DNA from: Candidatus Woesebacteria bacterium
Lineage (GTDB): Bacteria > Patescibacteriota > Microgenomatia > UBA1400 > MFAQ01
Length of the DNA: 64,000 nucleotides
Direction of reading: 5' to 3'
NCBI GenBank assembly: GCA_035389185.1
Contig: DAOORK010000001.1
Span: 1,006-65,005, forward strand
Positions 5,620 through 59,648 of this stretch are shown here, piece after piece; position 1 is the first letter of the stretch, and every line of letters starts with the position of its first letter. The notes under the pieces were generated by a model that was not told the origin of the DNA, did not search any database, and saw nothing but the letters and a program-made list of their open reading frames with translations. The translations under genes were made by a program, and so were the position numbers.

Positions 5620-6072
5620 ATGGCAAATTCTTGTAAGATGCCCGGATGTGGCGGAGTAATTGATATGGATAAAGATATTGTCTTGCAGACCGGATGTGAT
5701 TCGTATACGACCTTTTATGCCTGCGATAAATGCGGACGCGTCCACTCGTACGAAGGTGAATTGATTTTTAATCGTCCCGGTGCGGCTGCATATCGACGAG
5801 AGGACGGTAGCCTCGAGCTGGTTGAACCGATTTCTTTTGAAGTCGACAAAGCATTTGTCCCTGGAAAGAAATACAGAACGACTGCGCATGTGGATGTTTG
5901 TCTCGAAGGAACCGATGGAGAGTGTGTGGCTGCCGATCTGGTTGAGCCGGTAAACGGCACCATTTTGATCTTCGACAGCATTGATGGTGATAAGTATCGC
6001 TTCCATGTGGAAGACGGCACTGAGTACCATCTGCACGCCAATGATCTAGACAAGATCGAAGAATTAAATTAG
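5620..6072 (+). CDS. hypothetical protein with N-terminal Cys4 zinc ribbon
   Basis: AGGAGG RBS; CxxC...CxxC in the first 40 aa; intrinsic terminator at 6082-6107. Confidence 0.55.
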   Translation: MANSCKMPGCGGVIDMDKDIVLQTGCDSYTTFYACDKCGRVHSYEGELIFNRPGAAAYRREDGSLELVEPISFEVDKAFVPGKKYRTTAHVDVCLEGTDGECVAADLVEPVNGTILIFDSIDGDKYRFHVEDGTEYHLHANDLDKIEELN

Positions 6073-6081
6073 TTTGAATAT

Positions 6082-6107
6082 GCGAGGGGTAAAACCCTCG
6101 CTTTTTT
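6082..6107 (+). terminator. intrinsic terminator
   Basis: gcgaggg-gtaaaa-ccctcgc hairpin followed by TTTTTT. Confidence 0.7.
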
Positions 6108-7378: not shown

Positions 7379-8269
7379 ATGGAGACTGCCCTCAATAATA
7401 TTGCGATGGATTGGAAGGACTTCTTCGAAAAGATGTCGATTGGCTTTGCTGTACGAAAAATCATCTTTAACAAAAAAGGAGAAGCTGTAGATATGAAATA
7501 TCTGAGTATCAACTCGGTATTTGCGAAGATAACGGGGTTTGGCAAGGAAGAAATACTGACAAAGACAGCAAAGAGACTTGTTCCAGATCTTGAAATTGAG
7601 TGGTATGAAAGATACGGCAGACTACTAAAAACAGGGAAATCAATGCTGTTTGACCAAAAGGTTGAGAAATTGGGAAAACTTTTCCGAGTGTATGCCGTAA
7701 AGATCGACAAGGATAAGGTGGGAACATTTTTTAGCGATATAACCACATTTGAGAAGGCAAAGGAGTTGATTCAAGAGAGTGAGTCAAAATACCAGGCAAT
7801 TGTTAAAAGTAGTCAGGATGCAATTGTAATGATGGATGACAAAGGAAAGATTACGGCATGGAACCCAGCGGCAGAGAGAATGTTTGATTATCGACAAGCT
7901 GAGGTTTTGGGAAAGGATTTGCACAGTTTGATTCCCATGGAAAAGTCGCACCGAGAGGAAAAAGGCCGTCTTGGAGTGTTTTTTCGTTCCGGGAAAAGTC
8001 AGATACTGGGTAAAACCCTAACACTACCGGTGAGAAACAAAAAAGGCGAGACTTTTTTAATTGAACTAACGGTATCGTCAACAAAAATAGAAGGGAAATG
8101 GTTTGCTGTAGGGGTGATGAGGGATATTACCGAAAGAAAAAAAACAGAAGAGGAGTTGAAGGAAAGGGTTAGGGCTTCGGAGATTTTAAATCAAGTAATG
8201 GTGGATAGAGAATTGAAAATGATCGAGTTAAAAAAGGAGATCGCCTTACTCAGAAAAAATGGTAAATAA
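7379..8269 (+). CDS. tandem PAS-domain protein with C-terminal coiled coil
   Basis: Two PAS-like blocks and a C-terminal heptad-rich tail; no output domain. Confidence 0.65.
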   Translation: METALNNIAMDWKDFFEKMSIGFAVRKIIFNKKGEAVDMKYLSINSVFAKITGFGKEEILTKTAKRLVPDLEIEWYERYGRLLKTGKSMLFDQKVEKLGKLFRVYAVKIDKDKVGTFFSDITTFEKAKELIQESESKYQAIVKSSQDAIVMMDDKGKITAWNPAAERMFDYRQAEVLGKDLHSLIPMEKSHREEKGRLGVFFRSGKSQILGKTLTLPVRNKKGETFLIELTVSSTKIEGKWFAVGVMRDITERKKTEEELKERVRASEILNQVMVDRELKMIELKKEIALLRKNGK

Positions 8270-9260
8270 CAGTCAAAAAAAAGGCATGAGATTGGCAACC
8301 AAGATGGTGATTTTGGCATCTATTTTTGCGGTTTTTTTGAGTGTCTCTTTGTTTTTTATTCTCCGAGTATGGGTGATTCCCGATGTAGAGTCTGAGATAA
8401 AAAAGCGAGTCTTGTCGTACAGCAAGATGGCGGCAGGTTTGATTGATGGGGATAGTTTGCAAAAGATAATGCCTGAAGGTCTCTCTACAAGTTCTGCCGA
8501 GTACAAGCAGATACTAAAGGTCGAGAGGGAGATGATGGCTTCCGATGGCCAGATAGATGATGTTTACACTATGGTGGCGACCGATGATCCCAATATGGTT
8601 CGTTTTGTGGTTGACGGTTTTGAAACCAGAGACTGGAATGCAGATGGGGAGGTTTCTCCTGAAGAAACAACGGCCGTTATTGGTGAAGAGTATGATGTTA
8701 CTGATATTCCTGTTTTGAGGAAGGCCTTTTTGGCAACATCAATTACGGACGAGTATTATTCCGACAAATGGGGGACATTTATGACCTCTGCATCTCCGGT
8801 AAAAAATAGTCGAGGAGTAGTGGTGGGTATTGTGGGAGTGGATATTCGATTTAGTGAGGTACTGGCACAGGAGCGGCAAATGCTGATACGGTTTGGATTG
8901 TATGCAGGGGCATTTTTGGTAATTACTCTAGTACTGGTGATATTACTTTCTTGGCTGATTGAACGAGGTGTGGGTGATTTTAATAGGTCAATTATGGAAA
9001 TTAGCGGTGAGGGAGCTACAGGTCTTCTAAATGACTCCGGAGGAGATGAGTTGTCGGAACTTTCAAGATCAATTAACAACCTAGTAGTTGGATTGAGAGA
9101 GTCAAGAGATCAATCAAACAAAAAAGTCGTGGAGAAAACGAGAAGTTTGGAAGAAAAGGTAGAGCAACTGGAAAAACTGAATAAATTAATGGTGGGGAGA
9201 GAAGTAATAATGTATGAGTTAAAAAAGGAACTGAAGGAGGCAAAAAATGAGCGGAAATAG
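8259..9260 (+). CDS. membrane sensor protein (TM-Cache-like-TM-HAMP-coiled coil), lacking a kinase domain
   Basis: N-terminal TM helix, periplasmic domain, second TM, HAMP-like linker; resembles the N-terminal half of the downstream kinase; start uncertain (alternative ATG at 8286). Confidence 0.55.
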   Translation: MVNNSQKKGMRLATKMVILASIFAVFLSVSLFFILRVWVIPDVESEIKKRVLSYSKMAAGLIDGDSLQKIMPEGLSTSSAEYKQILKVEREMMASDGQIDDVYTMVATDDPNMVRFVVDGFETRDWNADGEVSPEETTAVIGEEYDVTDIPVLRKAFLATSITDEYYSDKWGTFMTSASPVKNSRGVVVGIVGVDIRFSEVLAQERQMLIRFGLYAGAFLVITLVLVILLSWLIERGVGDFNRSIMEISGEGATGLLNDSGGDELSELSRSINNLVVGLRESRDQSNKKVVEKTRSLEEKVEQLEKLNKLMVGREVIMYELKKELKEAKNERK

Positions 9261-11643
9261 AATCAAACTTTCGGTACAGGTTAAGATAATACTTTCTTTG
9301 TTGATTGTGGTATTCTTTTTGGCCAGTGTTACGGTGGTAGTGGTGAAAAATAGGGTCGAGGATTCCATGTTAAACACAAAAAAAGAGACAATAGACTTGG
9401 CTGTACAGCAGCAAGCGGAGCAGATCGACATTGTTTTGAATGAAAGCAAGAGGGTCGCTGAGCAGGTACCTGGGATTCCCGGTATCTCCGATTATCTGAA
9501 TAATGACAATAGGCAAAATCAAGACACGAAAACACTGCGTATTTTGACCGATTTTATTGAAGGCCGACAGGTGGAGAGTATTAGTTTGCTCGATACTCAG
9601 GGAGTGGTGGTGCTTTCAACCGATGATTTGTTTTTGGAGAAAGAACTTGGTCACCGAAGCTACTTTCTATCTGCACTGTCTGGAGTGCCAGCGACAGAGA
9701 TGTTGATTGATATTGTGTCTAAGGAACCTGGAATTGTTTTTTCTGCCCCGGTGAAAGACAAAATGGGGAAAGTGATTGGAGTATCAATTGTAAAGGCGGA
9801 TATCCAGCCAGTTTATGAAACTTTAATTGACAGTTACATCGATCGGTTGGGTAAGTTTATGTTGGTAAATGACGATGGAGTGGTCGTTTTTGCAAATAAA
9901 GAAAACGCTCTATACAAGAGTTTGGGTGTAATGGGAGAGGAAATAAAGAAAATGATACAAAATGAAGATCGCTATTCGGGAAAGGAGATTGAGTCTTTAG
10001 ATTATGATGAAGCGCAAAGATCGGTGGAAAGTGGGGCTGAGAGTGCGCCGATATACGAGTTTTTTGATGAGGATGATGGTGTGTCCGAATACATAAAAAT
10101 GGTAAGAGTCGGCGATTCGCCCCTTTATTTGATCTCCGAGGTGGAGTCTGGAACAGTAACCGATGTGGTTAATTCTTTGGTTACTTCGGTAATCGTAACG
10201 ATTTTGTCAATTTTATTTGTTGGAGTGGTAGTGCAGATATTCCTTTTGAGGAGGGTCTTAAAACCTTTGTTTACTTTGAATAAATATGCTTTAAGTGTGA
10301 GTGGGGGAAACTTTAATGAGACTTTGACGGTGAAAACGAGTGATGAGCTGGAAACACTTGCCGAAAGCATAAAAAAGATGGTGTCAACGATTAAGGATTT
10401 TTACTCCGGACTTGAAGAAAAAGTGAAAGAGAAAACAGCTGAGTTAGAAAAGACCTTGGAGCAGATAGAAGCCAAAAATATCGATTTGGAAAATACTAAG
10501 AAAGCTGTTTTGAACGTAATGGAAGATTTAAACGAAGAAAAAGACAGGATTTTTTACGAAAAGAATAGGATTGAAACAATTTTGAAATCTATTGGCGATG
10601 GTGTTTTTGTGACAGATGGTGAGGGCAAAATTACAATTATCAATAAGGCGGCAGAGGAAATTACCGGACATCGCTTGGTAGACAGTGTGGGGAAGTATTA
10701 CTCAACGATCTTTAAATTTGGAATTGAGGGTCATCCAGAAATTAAATATCGAGATTTTGTGAAAGAAGTTTTGGAGACGGGAAGTCAAATTACTCTGGAT
10801 AAGCATTCCGTGATACTGGACAAAAAAGGTAACGAGATACCGATTTTGGATAGTGCCGCTCCTGTAAAAGACGTTGATGGCAAAACATATGGCTGTGTAA
10901 CGGTTTTTAGAGATAACACTCGAGAAAGAGAACTAGAGAGAAGTAAAGACGACTTTTTGTCGGTAACGTCACATCAACTCAGAACTCCTTTGGGAAGTAT
11001 GCGTTGGAATGTGGAGATGCTATTGGCCGGAGACTCCGGAAAATTGCCCGATGAGGCTTTGGAGTTGGCGACTCAGATTCACGAAGGAAACTTAAGAATG
11101 ATTAACTTGGTTAATGACCTTCTGAACGTGAACCGTATTGACCAAGGAAGAGTGATGGATGAACCGGTGAAGACGGATTTGGCAGTGATAATTAAAGAGG
11201 CGGTAAAAGAGCTTAATTACGAGGCAGATCGACGAAAGATAAAGATAAACATGGACTTGGAAAAGATAGACGGGATAGTGATTGATCCGAAACGTTTCCG
11301 CGAAGTGATAACGAATTTGATTTCCAATGCCGTTAAATACAATCGAGTCGGTGGCTGGGTTAAGATAACTCTTAATCAAGAAAAAAAATGGATCCAGATG
11401 ATAATTGAAGACAATGGGGTGGGTATTCCCAAAAAAGATGCTGCCAGTATTTTTAGAAAGTTTTTCCGAGCTAGTAATGCGGTTCAATCGGAAACTGAAG
11501 GCTCCGGTCTGGGACTATATGTAGTCAAAAAGTTTGTTGAGGGATGGGGTGGTAAGATTGAGTTGTCGAGTAAAGAAGGAAAGGGGAGCAAGTTTACGAT
11601 TTACTTACCATTAAAAATAAATAAAACAAATACAGATGAATAA
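9247..11643 (+). CDS. sensor histidine kinase (Cache, HAMP, PAS, HisKA, HATPase)
   Basis: H-box SHQLRTPL, N/G1/G2 boxes (NAVKYN, DNGVGI, GSGLGL); GGAGG RBS. Confidence 0.85.
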   Translation: MSGNRIKLSVQVKIILSLLIVVFFLASVTVVVVKNRVEDSMLNTKKETIDLAVQQQAEQIDIVLNESKRVAEQVPGIPGISDYLNNDNRQNQDTKTLRILTDFIEGRQVESISLLDTQGVVVLSTDDLFLEKELGHRSYFLSALSGVPATEMLIDIVSKEPGIVFSAPVKDKMGKVIGVSIVKADIQPVYETLIDSYIDRLGKFMLVNDDGVVVFANKENALYKSLGVMGEEIKKMIQNEDRYSGKEIESLDYDEAQRSVESGAESAPIYEFFDEDDGVSEYIKMVRVGDSPLYLISEVESGTVTDVVNSLVTSVIVTILSILFVGVVVQIFLLRRVLKPLFTLNKYALSVSGGNFNETLTVKTSDELETLAESIKKMVSTIKDFYSGLEEKVKEKTAELEKTLEQIEAKNIDLENTKKAVLNVMEDLNEEKDRIFYEKNRIETILKSIGDGVFVTDGEGKITIINKAAEEITGHRLVDSVGKYYSTIFKFGIEGHPEIKYRDFVKEVLETGSQITLDKHSVILDKKGNEIPILDSAAPVKDVDGKTYGCVTVFRDNTRERELERSKDDFLSVTSHQLRTPLGSMRWNVEMLLAGDSGKLPDEALELATQIHEGNLRMINLVNDLLNVNRIDQGRVMDEPVKTDLAVIIKEAVKELNYEADRRKIKINMDLEKIDGIVIDPKRFREVITNLISNAVKYNRVGGWVKITLNQEKKWIQMIIEDNGVGIPKKDAASIFRKFFRASNAVQSETEGSGLGLYVVKKFVEGWGGKIELSSKEGKGSKFTIYLPLKINKTNTDE

Positions 11644-14080: not shown

Positions 14081-14110
14081 AAAGCTCGCCCTTGCGGCGA
14101 GCTTTTAATT
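14081..14110 (+). terminator. intrinsic terminator after the tRNA cluster
   Basis: agctcgcc-cttg-cggcgagct hairpin followed by TTTTAATTTT. Confidence 0.7.
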
Positions 14111-14316
14111 TTAATTCTATGGCAAGATGGGAACTTGTAAAGTTCGCATTCTGAGCATCATAATCAAGCAACGCGGATTATGAGCCTGAATTAAGAGGAA
14201 GCGGACTGAAGCCGGAAAAAATAACGAAGTTATTCCGGCGCAAGGAGCAAGCTCTTCTATTGTCCTTGGCACAATAGAAAATGCCCCACAATCTAGTGGG
14301 TTATTTTTAATGCCAA

Positions 14317-14350
14317 GGAAACCCCGCACAATGCTGGGTCTGTGCGGGGA
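14317..14350. repeat. 34-bp hairpin-containing direct repeat, copy 1 (ggaaaccccgcacaatgctgggtctgtgcgggga)
   Basis: Identical 34-mer also at 14475-14508; internal 9-bp inverted repeat ccccgcaca/tgtgcgggg. Confidence 0.8.
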
Positions 14351-14474
14351 TGAATTGGAAGAGACACCACATCGCGATAGCGATGCTGTGTCTGGTAGCA
14401 TGAGAAGACAAAGTCGATCGAAATATTGATTGTCTATCTCAATCTAGGATTTGGATTCTCATGAAATACCACCC

Positions 14475-14508
14475 GGAAACCCCGCACAATGCTGGGTCTG
14501 TGCGGGGA
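14475..14508. repeat. 34-bp hairpin-containing direct repeat, copy 2
   Basis: Identical to 14317-14350. Confidence 0.8.
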
Positions 14509-14533
14509 GGACGTCATTATATCAAGGCCAAAA

Positions 14534-15694
14534 TTACATAGTGGAGAACCCGGGTGACTTGTAGAGAATATTGCCACCTTCGGCGTTTAACTGCATGACC
14601 AGAGGAGAGCTTGTCAGCCCATTATTGTAAACAGAAACTTGCCATAGAATACCGCTTCCTGTTTTGATGTACTGGGCTTTGATAGGAGATGAAGCACAGG
14701 TAGCTGGAGCTGAGCACTGCGAGTAAGTAATTTTAAGGATTTTGTCGAGGTCAATTCCAAGCTTGTTGGTTAGAACAGCGTCGTTTAATGAAGGAATATT
14801 GTCGTCTGGGGTGACGTAGATTTGTTTGTCGACGAGCTGGGGATTACCGGTGCCGGAGATAGCGACATAGAAGTATTTTTTGGTAGTGAGATCTTCACGG
14901 AAAAAATATTTGGTTACGGCCGATGCGGTGCTTTCGGCACTATCTACCTTGATAAGAATTAGCTGAGCGTTGGGTGAGCGATTGATAGCTACTTTGAGAG
15001 CTGAAGCCGCATTGGCTAGAGGCAGGAGATTGTTGCGTGAGAGTATCAAAGGAGTAGGGGTGGCTGAGAGAGTAGCACTTTTGGTTGCTTGCAGACTATC
15101 TGTTGGGGTAGGCACTTCGTAGATTGTAGATGTTGGAGTCGGCGTTAGGGATGTCTGCTGTTTTTCGAGAGTTTGAGTGATCTCTTGAAGCTGAGATTTT
15201 AGGTTGGCTGCTTGTTGAGATAGATAGGCGGAGTAGGCGAGGCCAATACCGGCAACGATTAAGAGAACAAGAATAATCACAATGGGAGCTGAAGACTTTT
15301 TCTTCGGGGCTTCTGCCGCTTGTGGTTCTTGAGGGGGCAAGGGTGCGGCTTGGGCTTCTTGAGGTACCGGTTCGGAAGCGAGTGTTTCTGAGGGTTTTTG
15401 GGCTTCAATAAGATTTTCGTTGGCTTCGACGAGCTTTTCCGATTCGTTGATGAGGTTAGTTGAAGGAGTAGGTATTTCTTCTTGGGGAAGAGGTGATTGA
15501 GGTTCAGTGTAGGTAGGAATAACTTCCGGGGTTTCTTCAAACGAGGGTTCTTGAGGGGGCACCGGTTCTGGTGGAGTGGTGGATTGAGCTGGCGGTGTTG
15601 GAAGCGAGTCTGTTTGTGACGCTGAAGATGGATCAGATGAGTTATCTGAAGGTGTGGATGGCAAAGGAAATGTTCCAAGATCATCGTTGGGCAT
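14534..15694 (-). CDS. Pro/Thr/Ser-rich single-pass membrane protein (hypothetical)
   Basis: Low-complexity P/T/S/Q-rich N-terminal half, one TM helix (APIVIILVLLIVAGIGL), C-terminal domain; start set at MPNDD (15694), 5 nt after a TTGACA-17-TACTAA promoter (leaderless). Confidence 0.55.
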   Translation of the reverse strand: MPNDDLGTFPLPSTPSDNSSDPSSASQTDSLPTPPAQSTTPPEPVPPQEPSFEETPEVIPTYTEPQSPLPQEEIPTPSTNLINESEKLVEANENLIEAQKPSETLASEPVPQEAQAAPLPPQEPQAAEAPKKKSSAPIVIILVLLIVAGIGLAYSAYLSQQAANLKSQLQEITQTLEKQQTSLTPTPTSTIYEVPTPTDSLQATKSATLSATPTPLILSRNNLLPLANAASALKVAINRSPNAQLILIKVDSAESTASAVTKYFFREDLTTKKYFYVAISGTGNPQLVDKQIYVTPDDNIPSLNDAVLTNKLGIDLDKILKITYSQCSAPATCASSPIKAQYIKTGSGILWQVSVYNNGLTSSPLVMQLNAEGGNILYKSPGFSTM

Positions 15695-15773
15695 ATGTTT
15701 AGTATGGCAAAAAGAGATGGATGTGTCAAGGTAAGGCAATAAAAAACCTGGAGTTTCCTCCAGGTTTGTAAAA

Positions 15774-17255
15774 TCAGTTTTTAAAAGCTTCAGCAATTTG
15801 TTCGGCGAGAGAGTTGATCTTTTTCTTTGTTTCCTCGTTGTAGATATAGTTATTACTATTCCACCGATCGCCAGATGGCTGAGAGATTTCTATGGTGAAG
15901 GTGGGATTGTCTCGTTTACGAGAACCATCCTCGTTCCTACCTTCATAGAGCTCACCAGTGAGGATACCGTCATCGACGACTTGCCAGGTGTCCTTATGGA
16001 CATTGTCTTTATATTGAAAACGACTTTTAACACGGCCAGGGGCCAAAGTGACGACGAACCCTTCTTCTTCGTAGATTACAGGAGGATTAAAACTGCCGTA
16101 TGCATCTTTGGGATTATCGATGAAGTATTGAGCGAGGTTTTCACCATAGAGAAGCGTGTGGAGAACGGGGTCGAGAGTCCGAATAATGTCTTCGAAATCA
16201 AAGATAAAGTTCAGGTCGTTTAGCGGTTTGGTTTGGACCCTTACGTCAACTCGGACCAGAGCTCTAGATATATTCAGAGCTTTAGCTAGATCTGCCTCGG
16301 GTTTGTCACCAACATAGGCGGCGCAAAATCTTAAAAGATAGAGATCTTCTGTTCGATTGAGAACATCGATGTAAACGGTGGTCTTAAAAAAGACACCCTG
16401 CCCATCGTAATCATAATCTCTATTCCATGAATCGCTGTTCTTAAGATGCTCGCTTGCTTCTTTGAGCATGCGATCGACAAACGAATTCGGATCTTGTTTA
16501 CTCTGGAACATTAACAGTAGACCGGCGCCCATGATTCCTTGACTGCTAGCGACGGATCTCAACTGCTCGTCTTGGGTAGCGTTTGAACTGTCTGGGATAC
16601 CTGATGAGTACAAACGGAGGGCGGCGCAAACATTTTCCCAACCTTTGATGGGTATACCACTTTCGCATTTATCAATGGTGACCTCGGTGAATTGCTCTTT
16701 GTTGATGTTCTCAACCGAAGATTTGTGTTTGGGTGAAATGAGAATCGAAAGATCGGTGAAGATGTTGTCAGCTTTTTCAAAGCCAGGCCAGTTATCAAGG
16801 TTTTTCCAGTTGATGAAAGTTCCGTGGAACCCCAAGTTTTTGAGTGCGGAATGAGCTTCTTTGGCCTGTTGTTCTGAAGTGATCATGGGAAGCATTCCCT
16901 GTATGTGGGAGGAGAGCGTATCAAGCGAAGACAGAATAGTCTGCCTTTCTTTTTGGTTGTAGCCGATCCAGCCGACCCAGGTGTTTGAGACAGAGTATCC
17001 AAATCGGCGTCGCAGTTCTTGACGAAAAGCGTCGTAGAAAGGTGACTCTTTTATGCCGTTTAAAAATATGCCATGAAAAGCATAACTGGAAGCGGCGGCG
17101 TCGGAGCAACCATGCTCACTGCCCACAATAGCACATTGAGCTTTACTGTAATTTCGAGAGTAAAAATAGGCAGCCAGTGAGAGCTCGTTAACAAGAAACT
17201 TGATTTTTTTGTCCGAAAAGGACTTGATGTGTTTCGAAATTGATTGCTGGTGCAT
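15774..17255 (-). CDS. hypothetical protein (493 aa)
   Basis: AAGGAGG RBS 9 nt before the ATG; hairpin plus T-run terminator at 15730-15760 on the minus strand. Confidence 0.6.
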   Translation of the reverse strand: MHQQSISKHIKSFSDKKIKFLVNELSLAAYFYSRNYSKAQCAIVGSEHGCSDAAASSYAFHGIFLNGIKESPFYDAFRQELRRRFGYSVSNTWVGWIGYNQKERQTILSSLDTLSSHIQGMLPMITSEQQAKEAHSALKNLGFHGTFINWKNLDNWPGFEKADNIFTDLSILISPKHKSSVENINKEQFTEVTIDKCESGIPIKGWENVCAALRLYSSGIPDSSNATQDEQLRSVASSQGIMGAGLLLMFQSKQDPNSFVDRMLKEASEHLKNSDSWNRDYDYDGQGVFFKTTVYIDVLNRTEDLYLLRFCAAYVGDKPEADLAKALNISRALVRVDVRVQTKPLNDLNFIFDFEDIIRTLDPVLHTLLYGENLAQYFIDNPKDAYGSFNPPVIYEEEGFVVTLAPGRVKSRFQYKDNVHKDTWQVVDDGILTGELYEGRNEDGSRKRDNPTFTIEISQPSGDRWNSNNYIYNEETKKKINSLAEQIAEAFKN

Positions 17256-22335: not shown

Positions 22336-22977
22336 ATGAATAAGAAGATTGTTTCTGGTTTACTAGGTTCGGCGTTGTTGGGCGGCGTATTTATGGTTAC
22401 GCCTGCAATGGCCAACGAAGGCACAGCAATGCTTAAGAGTGCCGGAGTGAGTGGAGCTTGTTATGTGGCTAGTGTGTATGTTGATGGAACCTATCGTGTT
22501 TTGGTTTCCTGTCGTGAACTGAAGATGGCTTTGTCTCCGGAAAATTACAACTACCTACTTTGGGTGAATACTGAGGATGGAAAGGTGAGGAGATTGGGAG
22601 AGATTGAGAATGGTAAGTTGCTGGCATCCACAGATGCCAAGTTTAACGGTATATTCGTGACGGCTGAGACAGATAGTTATGGGAACAAACCTTCACAAAA
22701 TGTTTTACTCACAGGCACGATTTCACCAATTGATTTTGGTGCCGGAGTGAAGAATGCAGAGATAACTACAGCTCCCACGCCGACGCAAAAGAAAGCAGTG
22801 ACAACGGCTACTCCAACGATTGAGGTTGTTGATGAGTCTGGTGCGGTGGAACAGGCAACTAACAAAGGGATTGGCAGTGCTTTGTCGACAGTCCTCAAAA
22901 TTGCGTTGTTTGGTTTTGGAGCTTTACTCTTGGTTGTAGGTGTCTTTAGCTTTATTTCTAGGAAGAGGTCGCTCTAG
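22336..22977 (+). CDS. secreted protein with signal peptide and C-terminal TM anchor (hypothetical)
   Basis: N-terminal signal sequence ...PAMA, Thr/Ala-rich linker, C-terminal hydrophobic helix plus RKRSL; TAGAAT 6 nt upstream of the ATG (leaderless). Confidence 0.5.
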   Translation: MNKKIVSGLLGSALLGGVFMVTPAMANEGTAMLKSAGVSGACYVASVYVDGTYRVLVSCRELKMALSPENYNYLLWVNTEDGKVRRLGEIENGKLLASTDAKFNGIFVTAETDSYGNKPSQNVLLTGTISPIDFGAGVKNAEITTAPTPTQKKAVTTATPTIEVVDESGAVEQATNKGIGSALSTVLKIALFGFGALLLVVGVFSFISRKRSL

Positions 22978-23054
22978 AGGTTGAGTATTTTCCTCGTTTC
23001 TGCCGTCTATGCGCCTTTTGGAGATTGATTTCGTGTTCCCCATCATCACCATCA

Positions 23055-23194
23055 CCCTTTATAGCGACCGACTCATACCGCCTCTCCTGCGGAGGCGGTT
23101 GGTCTGCCTACTCACCCCAAAAATTCTTGGAATACCAAGAAACCATGCTTTTTGGGGTTCCGTAAGCTCGTATAAAGGGAAAATGGTTCGATGG
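23055..23194. repeat. divergent copy of the ~200-bp intergenic repeat family (copy 1)
   Basis: Shares cgaccgactcataccgcctctcctgcggaggcggttggtctgcctactcacc and ggttccgtaagctcgt with copies at 30853 and 55084; the middle hairpin is replaced by a compensatory one. Confidence 0.75.
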
Positions 23195-23203
23195 GAATCT
23201 GTC

Positions 23204-23833
23204 TTAGGGGAGAAGCAGGTGAGTGATGAGATTGAGAAGAGGATAGATAATGGCGGAGATCGGAGCAGTACTGCCAAAGATGGGAAGAATGAGGAACAGG
23301 AGGATAAGTGTGCCGTAGCGATTCATGATTGATTGATATTCATAGGCTAGGTCTCGAGGAAGCAGGCCAAAGAGGATTTTTTGGCCATCAAGAGGGCCGA
23401 CAGGGATAAGGTTGAAGATGGCCAAGCCAACATTGATGTAGACAAAGGGAATCAAGAATATACTAAAGCTGTAAGGAAGGAAGTGGATAGCAAGAGCTAC
23501 AATTGATGCCAGAAGAAGGTTGCTTACTGGCCCGGCAAAGGAGATCAGACCGACGTCGCGGCGAGGGTGTTTGAGGTTGTAGGGGTCGAAGGGGGTGGGT
23601 TTGCCCCAGCCATAGGCGAAGTTGCCGCCGGAAAGAAGCATTAGTCCAAGAGGAAGGATTATGGTCCCGATAAGATCAATGTGGGCAAGGGGATTGAGAG
23701 TGAGCCGGCCTTGAGAACGAGCGGTTGGATCTCCCAAACGATCAGCCGTATAGGCGTGAGCGAATTCGTGAATACTGATAGCCAGAATCACATAAACAAA
23801 GCTTATCAATATGCTTAATAAGGAAATCAACAT
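23204..23833 (-). CDS. site-2 protease family zinc metalloprotease (M50)
   Basis: HEFAHA zinc-binding motif in the first TM helix, multi-TM; start at MLISLL (23833) 7 nt downstream of a TAGAAT box. Confidence 0.7.
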   Translation of the reverse strand: MLISLLSILISFVYVILAISIHEFAHAYTADRLGDPTARSQGRLTLNPLAHIDLIGTIILPLGLMLLSGGNFAYGWGKPTPFDPYNLKHPRRDVGLISFAGPVSNLLLASIVALAIHFLPYSFSIFLIPFVYINVGLAIFNLIPVGPLDGQKILFGLLPRDLAYEYQSIMNRYGTLILLFLILPIFGSTAPISAIIYPLLNLITHLLLP

Positions 23834-23893
23834 AACCTTTATTCTAGTACATTTGATACACAAATGGGCTGTATCTGTGTTAAAATTGGCTTC

Positions 23894-24133
23894 ATGAAAC
23901 AAACAGAAAAAGGAAAATTGCAGTGCGCCGTCTGCGGAAAAGGCGTACAACACGCCAACTTGGTGAGTTTTTCCAAACGCAGAATCAAGCACGTGAGGAA
24001 ACCAAATCTCCATGTTCACCATATTACTGTCGATGGAACAAAGGTAAAGATTTTGGTTTGTACTTCATGCAAAAGATCCCTACGCCAGGCACAAAGAGAT
24101 GAACAAGTAGCTGCCGCTAAGGCCAATGCCTAG
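23894..24133 (+). CDS. rpmB: 50S ribosomal protein L28
   Basis: CAVCGK..NxVSFSxRRxKxxxKPNLH..VDG..K..VCTSCKR matches the L28 consensus. Confidence 0.7.
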   Translation: MKQTEKGKLQCAVCGKGVQHANLVSFSKRRIKHVRKPNLHVHHITVDGTKVKILVCTSCKRSLRQAQRDEQVAAAKANA

Positions 24134-27116: not shown

Positions 27117-27229
27117 TCGCCGGCCTCCCTTTGGGGAGGTCTTTTTTTATGGTAATTCACTTGACTTAAGGCCTATATTATGATAGAATATAGGCTGTAA
27201 GTTGAAATTATATTTTGGAGGAGCAGAAG

Positions 27230-27676
27230 ATGATTAAATATCGTCCGGCTAATTCTTGGTTGTATATGGTGGTTTCTGCGATGTCTTTCGGGTTGTTTTT
27301 GATAACCAGTGTGTTTGTCGATGGAAGCTGGCCCTTTGCCATTCCGTCCGTAGTATTCGGGGTTATCTTATTCCTCAGCGTGGTGAAATGCATCGACGAT
27401 CTTGGTTTGCCAAGATTGCCGCGGGAGTCCGCATATGAACGACAGTGTCTCGAGCGTTGGCTCAGAGACGAAGGATACTGTTTGTTTAGGGGATCATGCA
27501 AAAAGCTGGCCAAAGACGCGATCGAATTTCGATCGGCTGGTGATGATCACGAAAGATCTCTCATCGCAACCAGTAAGATTCTTGAGTACGAGTTTTATCG
27601 GTATCAAGACTATGAATCAATTCGTATGGTCTGGCGTGCCGATAAGCCTTACGCAGTCTCAGTGTACGTGAAATAA
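27230..27676 (+). CDS. two-TM membrane protein, paralog 1 of a tandem trio
   Basis: GGAGG RBS; two TM helices then a soluble domain with LPRLPRESAYERQCLERWLRDEGY. Confidence 0.55.
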   Translation: MIKYRPANSWLYMVVSAMSFGLFLITSVFVDGSWPFAIPSVVFGVILFLSVVKCIDDLGLPRLPRESAYERQCLERWLRDEGYCLFRGSCKKLAKDAIEFRSAGDDHERSLIATSKILEYEFYRYQDYESIRMVWRADKPYAVSVYVK

Positions 27677-27787
27677 GTTTCAACCAACCGAAGGGATAAA
27701 ACCCTTCGGTTTTTTGTGGTTTGACAAACACCCTATAAAATGTTAATATATGGCCGCAAGTTAAAATTTTTTCAGGAGGTTGGATAG

Positions 27788-28234
27788 ATGATCAAATATC
27801 GTTCAAGAGTAAAAGCATGGTCATTTTTTGGGGCGACTATTTTTGGTATTTTTCTTATGGTTGAGATACTTGCGTTTAGTTTTGCAGATTGGTTTTTATT
27901 AGTGATGTGTACGATCATATTTACTCTCTGTATCTATAGCCTCGACAAGTTTTTATGTGAGATGAAACTTCCGACCTTGCCGCGGGAAACCAAACCGGAA
28001 CGCCAAACCCTCGAAATTAGTCTTCGGAACGAAGGATACTGCCGGTATGTGGGATCTCACAATGTGGTGTCCAAAAAGGCGGCTGTTTTCCAGCTCGACA
28101 AGAAGAGTGAAGAGCAAACGATTTTGGCGACCAGCGAGATTACCCAACATGAGGGCTACCGATTTTGGGACTTCGGTCCGTATCGTTTAGTATCTCGTGC
28201 GGATGAATCTACATGGGTAGCGTACGTGAAATAA
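27788..28234 (+). CDS. two-TM membrane protein, paralog 2
   Basis: Same architecture with LPTLPRETKPERQTLEISLRNEGY; preceded by a duplicated promoter/terminator module. Confidence 0.55.
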   Translation: MIKYRSRVKAWSFFGATIFGIFLMVEILAFSFADWFLLVMCTIIFTLCIYSLDKFLCEMKLPTLPRETKPERQTLEISLRNEGYCRYVGSHNVVSKKAAVFQLDKKSEEQTILATSEITQHEGYRFWDFGPYRLVSRADESTWVAYVK

Positions 28235-28345
28235 GTTTCAACCAACCGAAGGGATAAAACCCTTCGGTTTTTTGTGGTTTGACAAACACCCTATAAAATG
28301 TTAATATATGGCCGCAAGTTAAAATTTTGTGCGGAGGTATAAACA

Positions 28346-28810
28346 GTGGTTATTCATCGTTCAAGAGATCGTGTATTAATTGCCAGCATTGGCGAAACCT
28401 TCTTTATATCATTTTTAATTATCTGTCTCAGTTTTACTAAAGAGACGATATTATCAATGAAGTCACCTTGGGAATATGTTTTTCTGATTGTTATTTTGGT
28501 TATCGCAGTTGTGTTCTTTCTCTGGGTGTTACTTTGTGAGTTTAATCGTCCTCTGTTACCCAAGCAAACTCAGACCGAACGGCAGGAGTTGGAAAGCTGG
28601 CTGGCCAGCGAAGGCTATCGCAAGTTTTGGGGAACGATCTCCCGAAAAGACGGAGTGATTACCTTCAGGCTGGACAAATGTCGTGATCCATATCCTGAAA
28701 ATGGAATTAAACCAATGGAGCACGGTAATTACGTGTACTGGGACTTTGGTCAGTACAGGATAGTCAGACGCCTTGATCTCTCGATCGATTCCGAGGCGTA
28801 CGTGAAATAG
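28346..28810 (+). CDS. two-TM membrane protein, paralog 3
   Basis: GTG start after CGGAGG; LLPKQTQTERQELESWLASEGY. Confidence 0.5.
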   Translation: MVIHRSRDRVLIASIGETFFISFLIICLSFTKETILSMKSPWEYVFLIVILVIAVVFFLWVLLCEFNRPLLPKQTQTERQELESWLASEGYRKFWGTISRKDGVITFRLDKCRDPYPENGIKPMEHGNYVYWDFGQYRIVRRLDLSIDSEAYVK

Positions 28811-28849: not shown

Positions 28850-30808
28850 TTATTTGAGTACCGGCTGGGAAAGTTGTTCGAGATAATTGGTGGCAGATTG
28901 ATAGTCTGGCTTGAGGTCGAGAGCTGTCTGAAAGGCAGTCTTTGCTTCATTGTTTTGACCAAGGCTAAGATAGAGGACTCCAAGGTTAAAATAGTTTGAG
29001 CTATCTGTGGGTGAAATCTCGGTGATTTTAGTGAGAGTTTTGACGGCTTCTTGATTGTACTGGGGATAGAGTTCGGCAAGAGTAAGTTCGGTTTTGGCTT
29101 TGGTTTTGAGAATATTGAGATTGTGTGGGTTCATGGAAACGGCCCTTTCCGAGTTGCTGATGGCTTCGGAAATAAAACTGTTTATATATGACTCCGCTTT
29201 TTGTTTTAGTTCAGCAGAAGCAGTAGCCGGAATTTGTTTTTCGATTTGCGGAGCAATAATTTGAACGGCAATTAAGGCATTTAGATAGCCGTATTGAGCG
29301 TAATAAATGGGTTCGTGTGGATTTAGCTCCAGGGCCTTTTTACTTTCTTCATAGCTATTGCGGCCTAAGTTGTAGGCGATGTCTCCTCGCCAGGATTTGT
29401 TGAGGTTTATAAGAAGCCATATCGCTCCAATGACGACGATGGAGACACCCAGTATGGTGTCGAAACGGAGTTCAATGGATTTATCCTCGCCTGCATCGAG
29501 AGAAGAGAGATAGATGGCCGGAAAAAGAAAGAAAAATAAGCCGATGTTGACTACCGAAAAACCAAAGTAGTTGGTGATAAGAATAGAAATAAAACCAAGA
29601 AGCAGAGGTAGGCGAAGATCGCCATGTTTGGTTTTTTTGTTTAAGAACAAATAGAGGATAGAGCCAGTAAGAAAGAGGTAAGTGCCAAGACCAACAAAAC
29701 CGGAGTTGGCGAAGAAGTTGAGGTACTCGTTGTGGGCTTTGTTGTAGAGAAAATCGGTTTCTGAAGTCAGGTTGTGTGAGGCAGGGCGAACCTGGTAATA
29801 GCTATAGCCAAATGTCTCGACACCGGTGCCAAAAAGGGGATGGGAAAGACCTAACTTTATTGCCCCTTCCCAAACCACACGACGGATGGCCATGGAGTCG
29901 GAGCCACCAACGCGGGTTTTGTTTTCTTCAGTGATGATGGTGAGAGTGTCGGAGTAAAAAGGATTGATTTTATTAAGAGAGTTTAGGGTTTGATTGATCT
30001 TTGAACCGGCGAAAATAAAAAGAAGAATAGTGATTGGAATGAGTCCGAGAATAAGCCAAGACTTGCCTTTTTGAACTGAAGTAATAATAAAGAAGAGTAA
30101 TAAAATAACTGCGGTAGCTCCGAGACCGGACTGGGATTTAGTAAAGACAATGGTGATGAGAAATAGCAAAGAGAGTCCAAGGTGCAGGTATTTTTTGTCG
30201 ACGGTGTTGGCATTTACTGCTTGGTAAAGAGAAAGGGGAAGCAAGGCAACTAGGAAGGCCGAGAGCCAGTTGGGCTGGCCAAGAGTAGAAAAAACGCGAT
30301 TTTGGACGTCTTGGACCCAGATGTTTTTATCGATGCCAAAGTGCTCAAGAACGCCGTAAAATGAAATTACTGCGGCTGATGAGAGGATAGCGATGAGAAC
30401 GCGACCGAGAGCCTTTTTTTCTCCATGGAAATGGGTGACAAAAGCGTAGTAAAGAAGGACATAAGAGACTGTGGACATCAAACCCCCATGAAAACGAGAA
30501 TAGTACCCCCAAAGGCTAGTGTGGGGATTAATTGAGATGATAGTAGAAATTATTTGAGAGACGAGGAAGAGAAGGATTGGCAGGTCGAGCTTGGTGCGGA
30601 CAAACTCAAAACGATGATTGACAAAGGACTTGGTAAGCCAGGTTGCTCCAATGAGAATGGTCATCAGATAAACAAAAAGCATTTTGTTGAATTCAAAAAC
30701 CTCGGAAGTGTATGGCCAAAGGATAAGCGGAGTGACGAAAAAAAGAAGGTAAAAAAGCCAACGGATGATTTGGGTGTAAATAGGGGAGGTTTCCGGCCTT
30801 TTGGACAT
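28850..30808 (-). CDS. O-antigen ligase/polymerase (Wzy_C)-like multi-TM protein with C-terminal TPR repeats
   Basis: About 12 TM helices with a large periplasmic loop typical of Wzy_C/O-antigen ligases; C-terminal about 200 aa of TPR-like helices. Confidence 0.6.
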   Translation of the reverse strand: MSKRPETSPIYTQIIRWLFYLLFFVTPLILWPYTSEVFEFNKMLFVYLMTILIGATWLTKSFVNHRFEFVRTKLDLPILLFLVSQIISTIISINPHTSLWGYYSRFHGGLMSTVSYVLLYYAFVTHFHGEKKALGRVLIAILSSAAVISFYGVLEHFGIDKNIWVQDVQNRVFSTLGQPNWLSAFLVALLPLSLYQAVNANTVDKKYLHLGLSLLFLITIVFTKSQSGLGATAVILLLFFIITSVQKGKSWLILGLIPITILLFIFAGSKINQTLNSLNKINPFYSDTLTIITEENKTRVGGSDSMAIRRVVWEGAIKLGLSHPLFGTGVETFGYSYYQVRPASHNLTSETDFLYNKAHNEYLNFFANSGFVGLGTYLFLTGSILYLFLNKKTKHGDLRLPLLLGFISILITNYFGFSVVNIGLFFFLFPAIYLSSLDAGEDKSIELRFDTILGVSIVVIGAIWLLINLNKSWRGDIAYNLGRNSYEESKKALELNPHEPIYYAQYGYLNALIAVQIIAPQIEKQIPATASAELKQKAESYINSFISEAISNSERAVSMNPHNLNILKTKAKTELTLAELYPQYNQEAVKTLTKITEISPTDSSNYFNLGVLYLSLGQNNEAKTAFQTALDLKPDYQSATNYLEQLSQPVLK

Positions 30809-30852: not shown

Positions 30853-31053
30853 AATCCATTGAAAAAACCCGGATGTTATTTTGTTGCAAATCCTCTCTAC
30901 TTCGCCATTATTCCTTTCTGCCGACCGACTCATACCGCCTCTCCTGCGGAGGCGGTTGGTCTGCCTACTCACCTCGAAAACTCTGCCTACGGGCAGAGAC
31001 TATGCTTTTCGAGGTTCCGTAAGCTCGTCATTAAGGACAAATGGCTCGTAGAG
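30853..31053. repeat. ~200-bp intergenic repeat (copy 2), candidate structured RNA or MITE
   Basis: Near-identical to 55084-55283 over about 200 bp with two SNPs and one indel; contains hairpins ccgcctc/gaggcgg and tcgaaaactctgcc-tacg-ggcagag..ttttcga. Confidence 0.8.
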
Positions 31054-31120
31054 AATTTGTTTTACTGTTGAATATTTCGGTCTTCAATTTGTGAGGTAAT
31101 CTGTTATTATTAGCCATATT

Positions 31121-38779: not shown

Positions 38780-39332
38780 TGTTCTGTGCTTAACAGCACG
38801 GCGAACATTGACTTCTTCCACTCTTTACCCCTCTTAGTCTGGGACAATCCCAGTTGCTGACTACGGTTAAAATCATTTATCGGTAGAACTGTAAACTCTG
38901 CGTCTGAGCGAATCCTTGGAATATATGCCCGGATACTGGCCTGTCGCGCTAAGCGCCACCGGCCCACCCGCCAAGTAAATTGGCTGGTTATCTCTCGGGC
39001 TCTTGACATGATCCACCAAGCAAAGCTCGACGCAAAACTAAGACAAGAGAAAGCTGTAACCGACAAGATGCACGGCCTCAAAGCGCTTCGGTCCTAATGG
39101 CCGGCCCCCGATCCTCGCCGCTTTCCCTCATATGTATAGGGTCCTGACTGAGCACACAACGTGTGTGATCGGTGATATAAGCGACGTACAATAGCGCTCC
39201 AGCTGTGAAGTATTAAGAGTGGAAGAAAAATAACCGTCGGCCTCCTGGCAATGTTGCCAGGAGGCCAAACCATTTGATTAGTTAGTGTCTCGTTGTCAGC
39301 CTTTTCAACTTAGTTGGGAAGGCTGTTTTTTT
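38780..39332 (+). ncRNA. candidate structured noncoding RNA (identity unassigned; RNase P RNA and tmRNA considered)
   Basis: About 550-nt ORF-free, GC-enriched stretch in an AT-rich genome; strong promoter; ends with a 13-bp hairpin and a hairpin plus T7 terminator. Confidence 0.4.
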
Positions 39333-39423
39333 GGAAAAGATACTTGATTTTTATTATATAGGGTGGTAAACTACAGATCCAGTTAGAGGAATTCTCCTCT
39401 GAACATTCAAATTGGAGGTTTGT

Positions 39424-39522
39424 ATGCCAAACATGAAGATCTGGAGTTATGATAGCTCCGACGACAGTGATCATTCGTCAGACGATGAATCGAACACAAC
39501 TCCGGAAATGTTCGGATCATAA
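39424..39522 (+). CDS. small acidic peptide (32 aa, hypothetical)
   Basis: GGAGG RBS 6 nt upstream; MPNMKIWSYDSSDDSDHSSDDESNTTPEMFGS; hairpin terminator at 39547-39571. Confidence 0.3.
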   Translation: MPNMKIWSYDSSDDSDHSSDDESNTTPEMFGS

Positions 39523-39590
39523 AGCGTAGCCTACAATTGAATATTCGCCCTCGTCGTGATGACGAGGGCGTTTAAAATTTTAAGGAGATA

Positions 39591-39695
39591 ATGGTGAAAA
39601 TAAAAGAAAAAGTCTTGTATTGTAATCAAGATCAGGATGTAGATACTAACGATGATTCTTCAGCTGATTCGGGTAGAACCGTTGAAACTGAGTAG
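39591..39695 (+). CDS. small acidic peptide (34 aa, hypothetical)
   Basis: AAGGAG RBS; MVKIKEKVLYCNQDQDVDTNDDSSADSGRTVETE; terminator at 39705-39735. Confidence 0.3.
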   Translation: MVKIKEKVLYCNQDQDVDTNDDSSADSGRTVETE

Positions 39696-39793
39696 TGATG
39701 ATTTAAGCCACTCAATAAAATGAGTGGTTTTTTGTGACAAAAACAAAGATGGTAGAATACCCAAGTCATTTTTAATGTATATTTTTAAGAGTA

Positions 39794-54624: not shown

Positions 54625-55056
54625 ATGCTGTACTCACAGATAAAATTAGAGTCACAAACTGCTCAAAAAGCGGGAGATTCTCGACTGTATAACGCTTTAA
54701 AACTTTTGGTTTCAGAATTATCTTATGCTCAAGTTGATTATAAGGAGGGTGAACTGCCCGATGAAGAAGTAGTTCGTGTTTTAAACAAAGAAGGCAAGAA
54801 ACGCAAAGATTCAATCGAGATTTACGAAAAAGCGGGAGCTTCTGACCGAGCCGACCAGGAAAAATATGAATTGTCGGTAATTGAAAAATATTTACCCCAA
54901 TTGATGTCGGAAGCCGATGTTGAAGCGGAAATTGTGAAGATTGCCGCAGAAACTGGTCTGACTGGTGGTCGACTCATGGGTGCGGTGATGGGGAAATTAA
55001 GGGGGAAGGCGGATGGGGGAATGATTAATAAGATCGTGATGGTTAAGTTTCCGTAA
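54625..55056 (+). CDS. yqeY: GatB/YqeY domain protein
   Basis: YqeY-like sequence (LKLLVSELSYAQVD, EIVKIAAETGLTGGRLMGAVMGKL). Confidence 0.75.
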   Translation: MLYSQIKLESQTAQKAGDSRLYNALKLLVSELSYAQVDYKEGELPDEEVVRVLNKEGKKRKDSIEIYEKAGASDRADQEKYELSVIEKYLPQLMSEADVEAEIVKIAAETGLTGGRLMGAVMGKLRGKADGGMINKIVMVKFP

Positions 55057-55083: not shown

Positions 55084-55283
55084 AATCCATTGAAAAAACC
55101 GGATGTTATTTTGTTGCAAATCCTCTCTACTCCACCATTATTCCTTTCTGCCGACCGACTCATACCGCCTCTCCTGCGGAGGCGGTTGGTCTGCCTACTC
55201 ACCTCGAAAACTCTGCCTACGGGCAGAGACCATGCTTTTCGAGGTTCCGTAAGCTCGTCATTAAGGACAAATGGCTCGTAGAG
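55084..55283. repeat. ~200-bp intergenic repeat (copy 3)
   Basis: Near-identical to 30853-31053. Confidence 0.8.
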
Positions 55284-55383
55284 GATTGCCTGGCGAAGCG
55301 TCGCATAAAGAACAAGGGTTCACATTGGTGCTGGAATCTTTGTGGTAGAATGGCGGCATCTAAGCTCGTTAAAAGGAGGTTGT

Positions 55384-55617
55384 ATGGCTGTAAAAATGAT
55401 TCGTCATGGGAATTCAATTTTTCCCATTGAAATCACCTGCAAAAAGTGTCATGGCTTGGTGTGTATTGGAAAACCAACCGATTTGAGAATCGTGGTTGAT
55501 TACAGCACAGAAACAACGGCAGTTACCAATTGTCCCGACTGTAAGAGTCAGATCGTGTTGTATGACTCAGATCAGGCCCAAGCAATCGCTGAAGTTGAGA
55601 GAGCTCAGAAACGGTGA
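55384..55617 (+). CDS. small zinc-ribbon protein (hypothetical)
   Basis: AAGGAGG RBS; CKKCHG..C and CPDC Cys pairs; terminator at 55640-55672. Confidence 0.45.
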   Translation: MAVKMIRHGNSIFPIEITCKKCHGLVCIGKPTDLRIVVDYSTETTAVTNCPDCKSQIVLYDSDQAQAIAEVERAQKR

Positions 55618-59419: not shown

Positions 59420-59648
59420 TTATATTTTTTGTTTTTTGTGCTTGTCGTCCATATTCTTTATTGGCCACCGATAATTTGTCGCTTCCTGCGAGCGACAATT
59501 ATCTCGATACTCGGCTTGAATTTTCTTCTTCGAAGAAACCAAGCAATTCAAGCCTGCGTAGCGCGGCACAAAGAACACTGGACTCTTGCACAAGAAAAAT
59601 ATTTTGGCTGTATTGCTATAATAGGTTTGTTAAAAGTTAATTCAAAAA

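Follow-up and report, generated by a model that had tools for sequence, protein, structure and literature searches.

The closest described counterparts of the element reported here are the small interspersed repeats of bacterial genomes. Among them, the MITEs, or miniature inverted-repeat transposable elements, and the terminator-like repeats, including SPRITE, BOX, RUP, Correia/NEMIS, ERIC, and REP/BIME, are often cotranscribed at gene ends and can serve as terminators or as stabilizers of mRNA (PMC10969869). The Rickettsia palindromic elements (RPEs) are dispersed palindromic repeats as well and occur also in frame within protein-coding genes, to whose products they add a stretch of peptide (PMC10969869).

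We analyzed a 64,000-nt stretch of contig DAOORK010000001.1 (assembly GCA_035389185.1), here called the window, from the candidate phyla radiation (CPR)/Patescibacteria, a group whose non-coding RNA is almost unexplored and whose intergenic space is scarce. Judged by its MreB and DnaX matches, the source is a Candidatus Collierbacteria, with a genome of 0.5-0.7 Mb, and the window corresponds to GCA_029561095.1 and to digester contigs from JGI. The window carries a family of ~170-nt non-coding elements that has so far been seen only in Candidatus Collierbacteria and close relatives, that accounts for ~1% of the region examined, and that holds conserved positions beside the core genes dnaX, yqeY/ybeY, and mreB. 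The family belongs to no known family tested. Covariation among its copies strongly supports a structured RNA, and the family disperses to new sites over evolutionary time. Our preferred reading, held tentatively and at somewhat less than even chances, is that of a structured RNA module that disperses and sits at the 3' ends of genes or between cistrons.

Copies, common fold, and covariation

A repeat search of the window returned a single family, at 23006-23200 (62% identity to the reference), 30863-31057, and 55093-55287 (97%), and together with direct reading of the sequence it bears out the repeat reported in the initial annotation. The three copies claimed there are all real, and a covariance model (CM) built from five sequences added a fourth, diverged one (83.9 bits, E = 5e-22). 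Searched with this kind of model and with filters off, the window holds exactly four copies, all on the plus strand, with nothing else reaching a convincing score; the next 10 kb beyond the window gave no covariance-model copy. We call the four c1 to c4 in order of position (Table 1). In a global alignment, c2 (30853-31057) and c3 (55084-55287) are alike over 205 nt save for 4 substitutions and a 1-nt indel (AAAAAACCC versus AAAAAACC), and their cores are 98% identical; the initial annotation had the indel right but counted two substitutions within 30853-31053 and 55084-55283, where there are three. c1 is only ~62% identical overall. It has in common with c2 and c3 a 52-nt invariant block (CGACCGAC...CTACTCACC) and GGTTCCGTAAGCTCGT, and it departs from them in the second hairpin and the outer stem through paired, compensating changes (MAFFT alignment).

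Homologs were found by two routes. An exact-pattern scan of metagenome contigs (GACTCATA..TTGGTCTGCCTAC) gave two true homologs, L014 and L015 (L labels denote related loci or contigs), and two chance matches; the first hairpins of these homologs carry the new compensatory changes CCGTGTC/GACACGG and CCGCATC/GATGCGG. Four further members, with covariance-model E values from 1e-12 to 1e-16, were reached at syntenic loci through DnaX homologs. The resulting set of ten comprises c1 to c4, L014, L015, L033, L034 (two), and L038. Within it, c1, c2, c3, L014, and L015 form a young subfamily with 72-98% identity; pairwise identity among the old copies is 33-50%. The element measures 170-205 nt around its ~170-nt core, and the young copies differ in their boundaries, consisting of the core only, the core with a 5' extension, or the core with extensions on both sides, between which no consistent pairing that would lengthen the outer stem was found. 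No member was detected in ~20-kb samples of L016, L020, L035, and L036, and viral-contig scans and distant blastn searches against phage and plasmid sequences gave no homolog in phage, plasmid, or viral collections. A genome-contig scan with the invariant 18-mer TTGGTCTGCCTACTCACC returned 8 loci, all of them chance matches in coding genes, five being one conserved Planctomycetota gene.

All ten homologs fit a single three-way junction, in which a closing stem, P1, holds two hairpins, P2 and P3. P1 is ~25 bp long and broken by small internal loops, P2 has a CC(U/A)GC loop, and P3 has an ACCnnGC internal loop on its 3' side; both hairpins quoted in the initial annotation (ccgcctc/gaggcgg and tcgaaaa-ctctgcc-tacg-ggcagag-...-ttttcga) are present. 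In c4 all three helices are rewritten, with the P2 loop UCCUGCG, the junction bases, and the ACCnnGC loop retained. Whichever strand is taken, the copies fold much more stably than shuffles do (z = -5.1 to -7.7), and single-sequence minimum-free-energy folds give the same Y shape for most of the diverged copies, the original evidence having come from MAFFT alignments. Across the 10-sequence alignment, 94.4% of 594 cells hold standard pairs, double changes occur at 56 of the 61 pairs, and 173 cells are compensatory; a 6-sequence alignment has 96.4% of its cells paired and double changes at 36 of 61 pairs. None of 500 column-shuffled controls matched the pairing and covariation values observed for the ten sequences, and a register slide that moved the 3' partners by 1-3 columns left 39-50% pairing, at most 27 pairs, and at most 37 compensatory cells. 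The covariation support of the family is about equal to that of well-established RNA motifs, and it argues strongly for the structured RNA that the initial annotation had named as one of its candidates.

The conserved unpaired positions are the junction ACCG, the P2 loop CCNGC, a junction U, UAC, ACC..GC, and CGUA. On the plus strand, the paired cells include 22 G-U against 6 A-C, and the mismatches are pyrimidine-pyrimidine in 25 cases and purine-purine in 2. The P3 tetraloop cUACGg occurs in c2 and c3 only, the other loops being AAUA, AGUA, and ACUA. These wobble and mismatch counts, together with the cUACGg tetraloop, favor the plus strand as the folded one and fit RNA best, single-stranded DNA of that strand being a less likely alternative. 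The P3 loop of c4 was considered as a UUCG tetraloop and rejected, since this loop has 3 nt.

With Rfam 15 at gathering thresholds, the whole window gave only 4 tRNAs, and permissive scans (to E <= 10) of c1, c2, c4, and the L033 and L034 copies gave chance-level matches (E >= 0.7) or none, in agreement with the initial annotation, which had matched the element to no RNA family. A full-text literature search returned nothing on structured RNAs or repeats in Microgenomates/Collierbacteria. Signal recognition particle (SRP) RNA, considered for its link to dnaX, was ruled out by the multicopy state of the element, the lack of an Rfam SRP match, and the lack of a domain IV motif. Protein coding was ruled out too, and conservation does lie at the nucleotide level as first proposed, because the indel shifts the reading frames, the differences are compensatory rather than synonymous, and stops fall in different frames in each copy. 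A 107-aa open reading frame (ORF) called over c1 (P0121) matched only itself in a full HMMER search. The compact junction, its invariant unpaired nucleotides, the fully covarying stems, and the multicopy intergenic or intercistronic placement recall hammerhead, twister, and related motifs of bacteria, and the element might accordingly be pictured as a transcript-punctuating RNA of a new kind, either a self-cleaving ribozyme or a ligand-binding RNA. We regard this as very unlikely, given that the models of known ribozymes and riboswitches give no match even with a cutoff of E <= 10 and that the junction has only ~3 unpaired nucleotides.

A weak covariance-model match at 14228-14386 on the minus strand (16 bits) was rejected as a member of the family and reflects a different hairpin repeat. 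There, a ~34-nt perfect repeat, tccccgcacagacccagcattgtgcggggtttcc, occurs twice on the minus strand (~14310-14350 and ~14470-14510, 158 nt apart) in the 450-nt spacer from tRNA-Tyr to gene 14534-15796 (minus), its first copy adjoining the stop codon of that gene. It forms a 10-bp hairpin with CCAGC in the loop, resembling the P2 loop of the element. As a general motif, P2-like hairpins with a CCNGC loop show no enrichment in the window once the four copies and one other repeat are set aside.

Dispersal and long-term maintenance

The dispersal of the family follows from young copies at non-homologous sites, empty sites in relatives, and a copy within a gene. c2 and c3, for all their near-identity, stand at unrelated loci. 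In L016 the c1 site is empty, with a 3-nt orthologous spacer between orthologous flanking genes, and so is the c2 site, with a 56-nt spacer between orthologous genes. The copy in L015 is 74% identical and stands at a locus that is not homologous, and the dCMP deaminase of its host shares only 60% identity with that of the source. The L038 copy lies in frame within an uninterrupted 565-aa membrane-protein ORF, to which it is antisense; in this single case, the copy occupies a segment missing from the orthologs of the gene, 123 nt (41 codons) longer than in the L036 ortholog, and both sides align at 59-62% identity. It also has the highest number of broken pairs among all copies, as would be expected if structural constraint were relaxed inside a gene.

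Two side observations concern these insertion sites. At the position of the L038 insertion, the L035 ortholog (gene 14999-16600, minus) has a different in-frame palindromic insert at ~15617-15730 (TGCAAAAACCGCGCG...CGCGCGAGCCCGGATTTTTGCA, with an inner CCCGAC/GTCGGG hairpin) that the covariance model does not recognize, and this loop of the membrane protein may be a hot spot for palindromic insertions. An extra 3' module is common to c3 (55293-55345) and L015 (4771-4830), at non-homologous loci and in different hosts. It runs from GCGAAGCGTCGCATAAAG..GGTTC.. to the promoter-like TGGTAGAAT/TGCTAGATAAT, so that the dispersing unit may carry an outward-facing promoter.

The initial annotation had offered a MITE as its other candidate. 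The dispersal which that implies is well documented by the near-identical copies, the empty sites, and the in-gene copy, and the element resembles MITEs in being small and non-coding, with a stable predicted stem-loop and presence/absence polymorphism. The classical marks of such an element were not found, however. There are no conserved terminal inverted repeats (TIRs), the c2/c3 block ending in AATCC...GGATT (GAATT in c2), 5 bp only; P1 is an inverted repeat, yet its sequence varies among copies with compensatory changes. No direct repeat that would mark a target site duplication (TSD) connects the flanks of c2 (..TTGCTCC / TGTTTTAC) or those of c3 (..TCGTACT / GCCTGGCG), the exact junctions being undelimited by any close empty-site relative, and the window plus ~11 kb of flanking sequence encode no transposase, integrase, or reverse transcriptase Pfam domain. 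A purely selfish, non-autonomous MITE- or RPE-like palindrome without host function, its structure answering the need of a mobilizing enzyme, would account for the near-identical copies at unrelated sites, the polymorphism between genomes, the copy in a distant host, and the in-frame insertion in a coding gene, as in RPEs (PMC10969869). We nevertheless find it doubtful, for in addition to the missing hallmarks and the varying boundaries of the young copies, the copies at the same locus in three species are near sequence saturation and keep >90% of their pairs, which a neutral insert would not do.

That locus is the dnaX-ybaB spacer of the source genome, L033, and L034. Third-codon identity of dnaX among the three is 46-48%, near saturation, and the elements at the site are 47-57% identical in free alignment, with >90% of pairs intact in each. 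Sequence drift at about the third-codon rate with pairing kept points to selection on structure in place. Only these three genomes, the closest ones, have the element at the dnaX site. Two further relatives have a spacer of 96-120 nt, in two others a small gene fills it, and no element was found in the dnaX-ybaB spacer of L036/L037 or of the P0139 genome. This confined presence fits a single ancestral insertion kept thereafter by structural selection in place.

Structure conserved over sequence, in copies lying directly 3' of ORFs and in ORF orientation, might also be expected of a single-stranded-DNA recombination or transposition site such as integron attC, the ends of IS200/IS605, or REP/RAYT, and DNA hairpins tolerate G-T wobble too. 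We judge this highly improbable. The flanks are core housekeeping synteny (dnaX-ybaB-recR and yqeY-ybeY) and not cassettes, the ends lack the R'' (RYYYAAC) and R' (GTTRRRY) cores of attC, the conserved bases being those of internal loops and the junction, and the ~75 kb examined contain no integrase or HUH/Y1 transposase domain.

Placement and a candidate role at transcript boundaries

The usual slot of the element is typically between a stop codon and the following promoter. Most copies begin 3-20 nt downstream of a stop codon; of the nine intergenic copies, seven have the same orientation as the gene to their 5' side, and five begin at most 20 nt past the stop of that gene. c4 and its counterparts in L033 and L034 lie 11-20 nt past the dnaX stop in three species, and c3 and the second L034 copy each directly follow yqeY. 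c1 and L014 stand in convergent spacers directly after a co-oriented gene, and the L015 copy lies antisense between two genes. On the 3' side of the element, extended -10 promoters are predicted for mreB (TGtTATTAT, conserved also in L016), for the Zn-ribbon gene (TGgTAGAAT), and for ybaB (TGnTATAAT), and the ybaB extended -10 and 5' untranslated region (UTR; TGnTATAAT..GTTAAAAGTTAATTCAAAAAATG) follow the element in all three species.

The ybaB promoter and 5' UTR merit a remark of their own. This segment (TGnTATAAT-AGGTTTGTTAAAAGTTAATTCAAAAA-ATG) is near-identical at 59600-59651 of the window, 4416-4488 of L033, and 9641-9716 of L034, and it is more conserved than the dnaX coding sequence (third-codon identity, 46-48%). 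It may be a regulatory element itself.

The initial annotation had correctly placed two of the copies upstream of mreB and of a small CxxC gene and had proposed a shared cis-regulatory 5' leader. c2, c3, and c4 are indeed each followed by a co-oriented gene, and closure of a three-way junction by a stem such as P1 is an architecture common among aptamers. The proposal fails because the predicted promoters of mreB, the Zn-ribbon gene, and ybaB sit 3' of the element, between it and the gene, the last of them conserved in three species. Furthermore, c1 and L014 face convergent genes and L015 an antisense gene, the downstream genes are functionally unrelated, and P1 is too long and stable to switch. 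We give this explanation hardly any credence.

A stronger, though still unlikely, alternative is that the copies are independent small-RNA (sRNA) genes encoding paralogous trans-acting sRNAs whose C-rich loops (CCUGC, ACC) pair with G-rich or Shine-Dalgarno (SD)-like targets or bind a protein. Functional non-coding RNAs (ncRNAs) typically combine covarying stems with conserved loops, both apical and internal, and the P2 5' strand and loop read CUCCU/CUUCCU, an anti-SD-like string, in 7 of 10 copies. c2 and L015, which are not co-oriented with an upstream gene, would need a promoter of their own if expressed, and the 5' extension common to c2, c3, and L015 could carry one. However, not every copy has the anti-SD-like string, no copy has a predicted sigma-70-like promoter on its upstream side despite good consensus promoters elsewhere in the same regions, and starts 3-20 nt past stop codons leave no room for a promoter outside coding sequence.

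Our preferred reading, the structured RNA module that sits at the 3' ends of genes or between cistrons, would combine dispersal with function. The family reaches new genomic sites over time, and no classical MITE hallmarks were observed. Copies landing between a stop codon and the next promoter are retained long, their structure held by compensatory substitutions, and from this retention we infer that the element is transcribed and acts at the RNA level within the transcript of the upstream gene, with which it would be cotranscribed. Its role would most likely be that of a 3'-end or intercistronic structural module, possibly one that defines or protects the mRNA 3' end or that offers a processing site to a double-strand-specific (RNase III-type) nuclease, and the conserved loops and junction could form a recognition surface for some factor. 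A simple terminator scan found no canonical terminator downstream of yqeY and dnaX and does not call P1; canonical terminators are clearly used elsewhere in the same genome.

Several points weigh against this reading. A U-rich tract directly follows P1 in only about half of the copies (at least 5 U within 10 nt past P1 in c1, c2, c4, and the dnaX copy of L034; weak or absent in c3, L014, L015, and the yqeY copy of L034). The yqeY copy of L034 is intercistronic and ends 11 nt ahead of the ybeY ATG, which makes an efficient terminator role impossible there. Neither c2 nor the L015 copy has a co-oriented upstream gene, no consensus promoter is predicted in front of any copy, and a simple role in stability or termination does not explain the conserved loop and junction nucleotides. 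The alignments used for pair counts were fitted to the covariance model, so pairing is somewhat inflated, and the strand and transcript ends assigned to the putative RNA are read from sequence. Positional counterparts could in principle be independent site-specific insertions and not orthologs. Finally, the survey covers ~75 kb of the source genome and, for a few relatives, ~20 kb each.

A bolder version of the same idea would see in the junction a new functional RNA class in CPR bacteria, a self-processing or factor-recruiting "punctuation" of transcript boundaries that copies itself to gene ends and into genes without a canonical transposase, possibly via an RNA or single-stranded intermediate. 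The variable boundaries of the young copies and the copy in a distant host are compatible with it, but we consider it improbable.

Features of the window and relation to known systems

Table 1. Coordinates of the element's copies, their parts, and their settings
Feature	Position	Strand	Characteristics	Setting
c1, young subfamily, core only	23031-23203	+	CM match, 172-174 bits	Convergent spacer between 213-aa gene (22336-22977, +) and M50 peptidase gene (23204-24022, -)
c1 helices	P1 23037-23067/23168-23196; P2 23070-23104; P3 23106-23167	+	From the fold	
c2 5' extension	30853-30887	+	AATCCATTGAAAAAAC(C)CGGATGTTATTTTGTTGC; common to c2, c3, and partly L015; no sigma-70-like promoter predicted	
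c2 core, three-way junction	30888-31061	+	CM match, 195-202 bits	Divergent Wzy_C/TPR gene (28850-30808, -) on one side, mreB (31121, +) on the other
c2 helices	P1 30894-30924/31025-31054; P2 30927-30961; P3 30963-31024	+	From the fold	
c2 loops	P2 30942-30948; P3 30988-30991; asymmetric 30999-31005		P2 UCCUGCG; P3 tetraloop cUACGg; asymmetric ACUAUGC	
c3 5' extension	55084-55117	+	Same as that of c2 apart from 1-nt indel	
c3 core	55118-55291	+	CM match, 187-196 bits	3' of yqeY (54625-55056), 5' of Zn-ribbon gene (small CxxC gene, 55384-55617)
c3 helices	P1 55124-55154/55255-55284; P2 55157-55191; P3 55193-55254	+		
3' extension	55293-55345	+	c3 and L015 only; GCGAAGCGTCGCATAAAGRAYAA.GGTTC... 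then promoter-like TGGTAGAAT; single occurrence in window	
c4, old and diverged	59431-59599	+	46-50% identity to c1-c3; CM 83.9 bits (model R1), 147 bits (R2)	Begins 11 nt past dnaX stop (59419), 5' of ybaB (59649-59948) and ybaB promoter
c4 helices	P1 59437-59467/59564-59592; P2 59470-59503; P3 59505-59563		P2 loop UCCUGCG; P3 loop ACCAAGC	
L033 member	4248-4415			dnaX-ybaB spacer
L034 member (L034b)	9470-9640			dnaX-ybaB spacer
L034 member (L034a)	5924-6098			Directly 3' of yqeY
L038 member	14719-14888		57 bits, E = 2e-16	Inside ORF 14099-15796 (-)

Apart from the family, the window holds further repeats and gaps. A 120-nt repeat at 27661-27780 and 28219-28338 (97% identical), carrying a canonical terminator (AACCGAAGGG..CCCTTCGGTT TTTT) and a TTGACA-17-TAATAT promoter, separates tandem paralogous genes of unknown function that encode 148-154 aa (27215-28810). 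Two adjacent genes, 7379-8269 and 8259-9260, have a 50-nt direct repeat near their 3' ends (8189-8238 and 9180-9229, 80% identity); these genes, the first with PAS domains and the second without a Pfam match, stand upstream of a histidine-kinase gene and may be paralogs. Upstream of topA, ~970 nt (38822-39793) contain no called gene, and L016 has a gap of similar length before topA; the segment has no Rfam match and shows little sequence conservation between species. In two independent assemblies (L028 and L029), the contigs, 710 kb and 443 kb long, break off ~1.2 kb ahead of the first base of the window; this points to a repeat or some other feature, hard to assemble, just upstream.

For the family itself, the significance is threefold. 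The element is a concrete candidate for a mechanism, specific to this lineage, by which mRNA 3' ends are formed or processed, its spread without the usual transposon hallmarks could inform how small structured repeats of the RPE/REP type move and become domesticated, and its covariance model is directly usable on public CPR genomes and digester metatranscriptomes.

Set beside known systems, the element may be likened, purely by analogy, to the intercistronic RNase III hairpins of the phage T7 early region and to rRNA processing stalks: in each, a long imperfect duplex surrounds a structured insert, lies between cistrons in several copies per genome, and appears conserved in structure over sequence. 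The RNase III sites of phage T7, however, are plain hairpins that lack a conserved three-way junction. Orphan structured ncRNA motifs of the Rfam type offer another likeness, in that they are defined by covariation, have conserved loops and junctions, are restricted to particular lineages, and have no known function; the present element differs in being absent from Rfam 15 and in its unusual mix of positional orthology, recent dispersal, and insertion into a coding region.

With the MITEs and terminator-like repeats, the element has in common that these are small, non-coding, interspersed stem-loop repeats with presence/absence polymorphism. MITEs have conserved termini and a drifting interior, whereas in this family it is the outer stem that drifts, under compensation, and the junction and loops inside it that stay conserved. 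The DNA examined shows neither sequence-conserved TIRs nor TSDs nor a cognate insertion sequence. RPEs are similar in size (~100-170 nt), in strong folding, in having hosts with reduced genomes, and in occurring both between genes and in frame within them, and they are not known to have an associated transposase. Membership in the RPE-1 to RPE-10 families is implausible on taxonomic grounds, the host phylum being another one; it is behavior alone that is compared, with one in-gene case here against many among RPEs. The element also differs from RPEs in its core, a three-way junction with conserved loops, and in positional copies that keep their structure over long divergence. In its behavior, the element is most like RPE, REP, or SPRITE repeats, with the addition of a conserved junction core and long-term structural maintenance.

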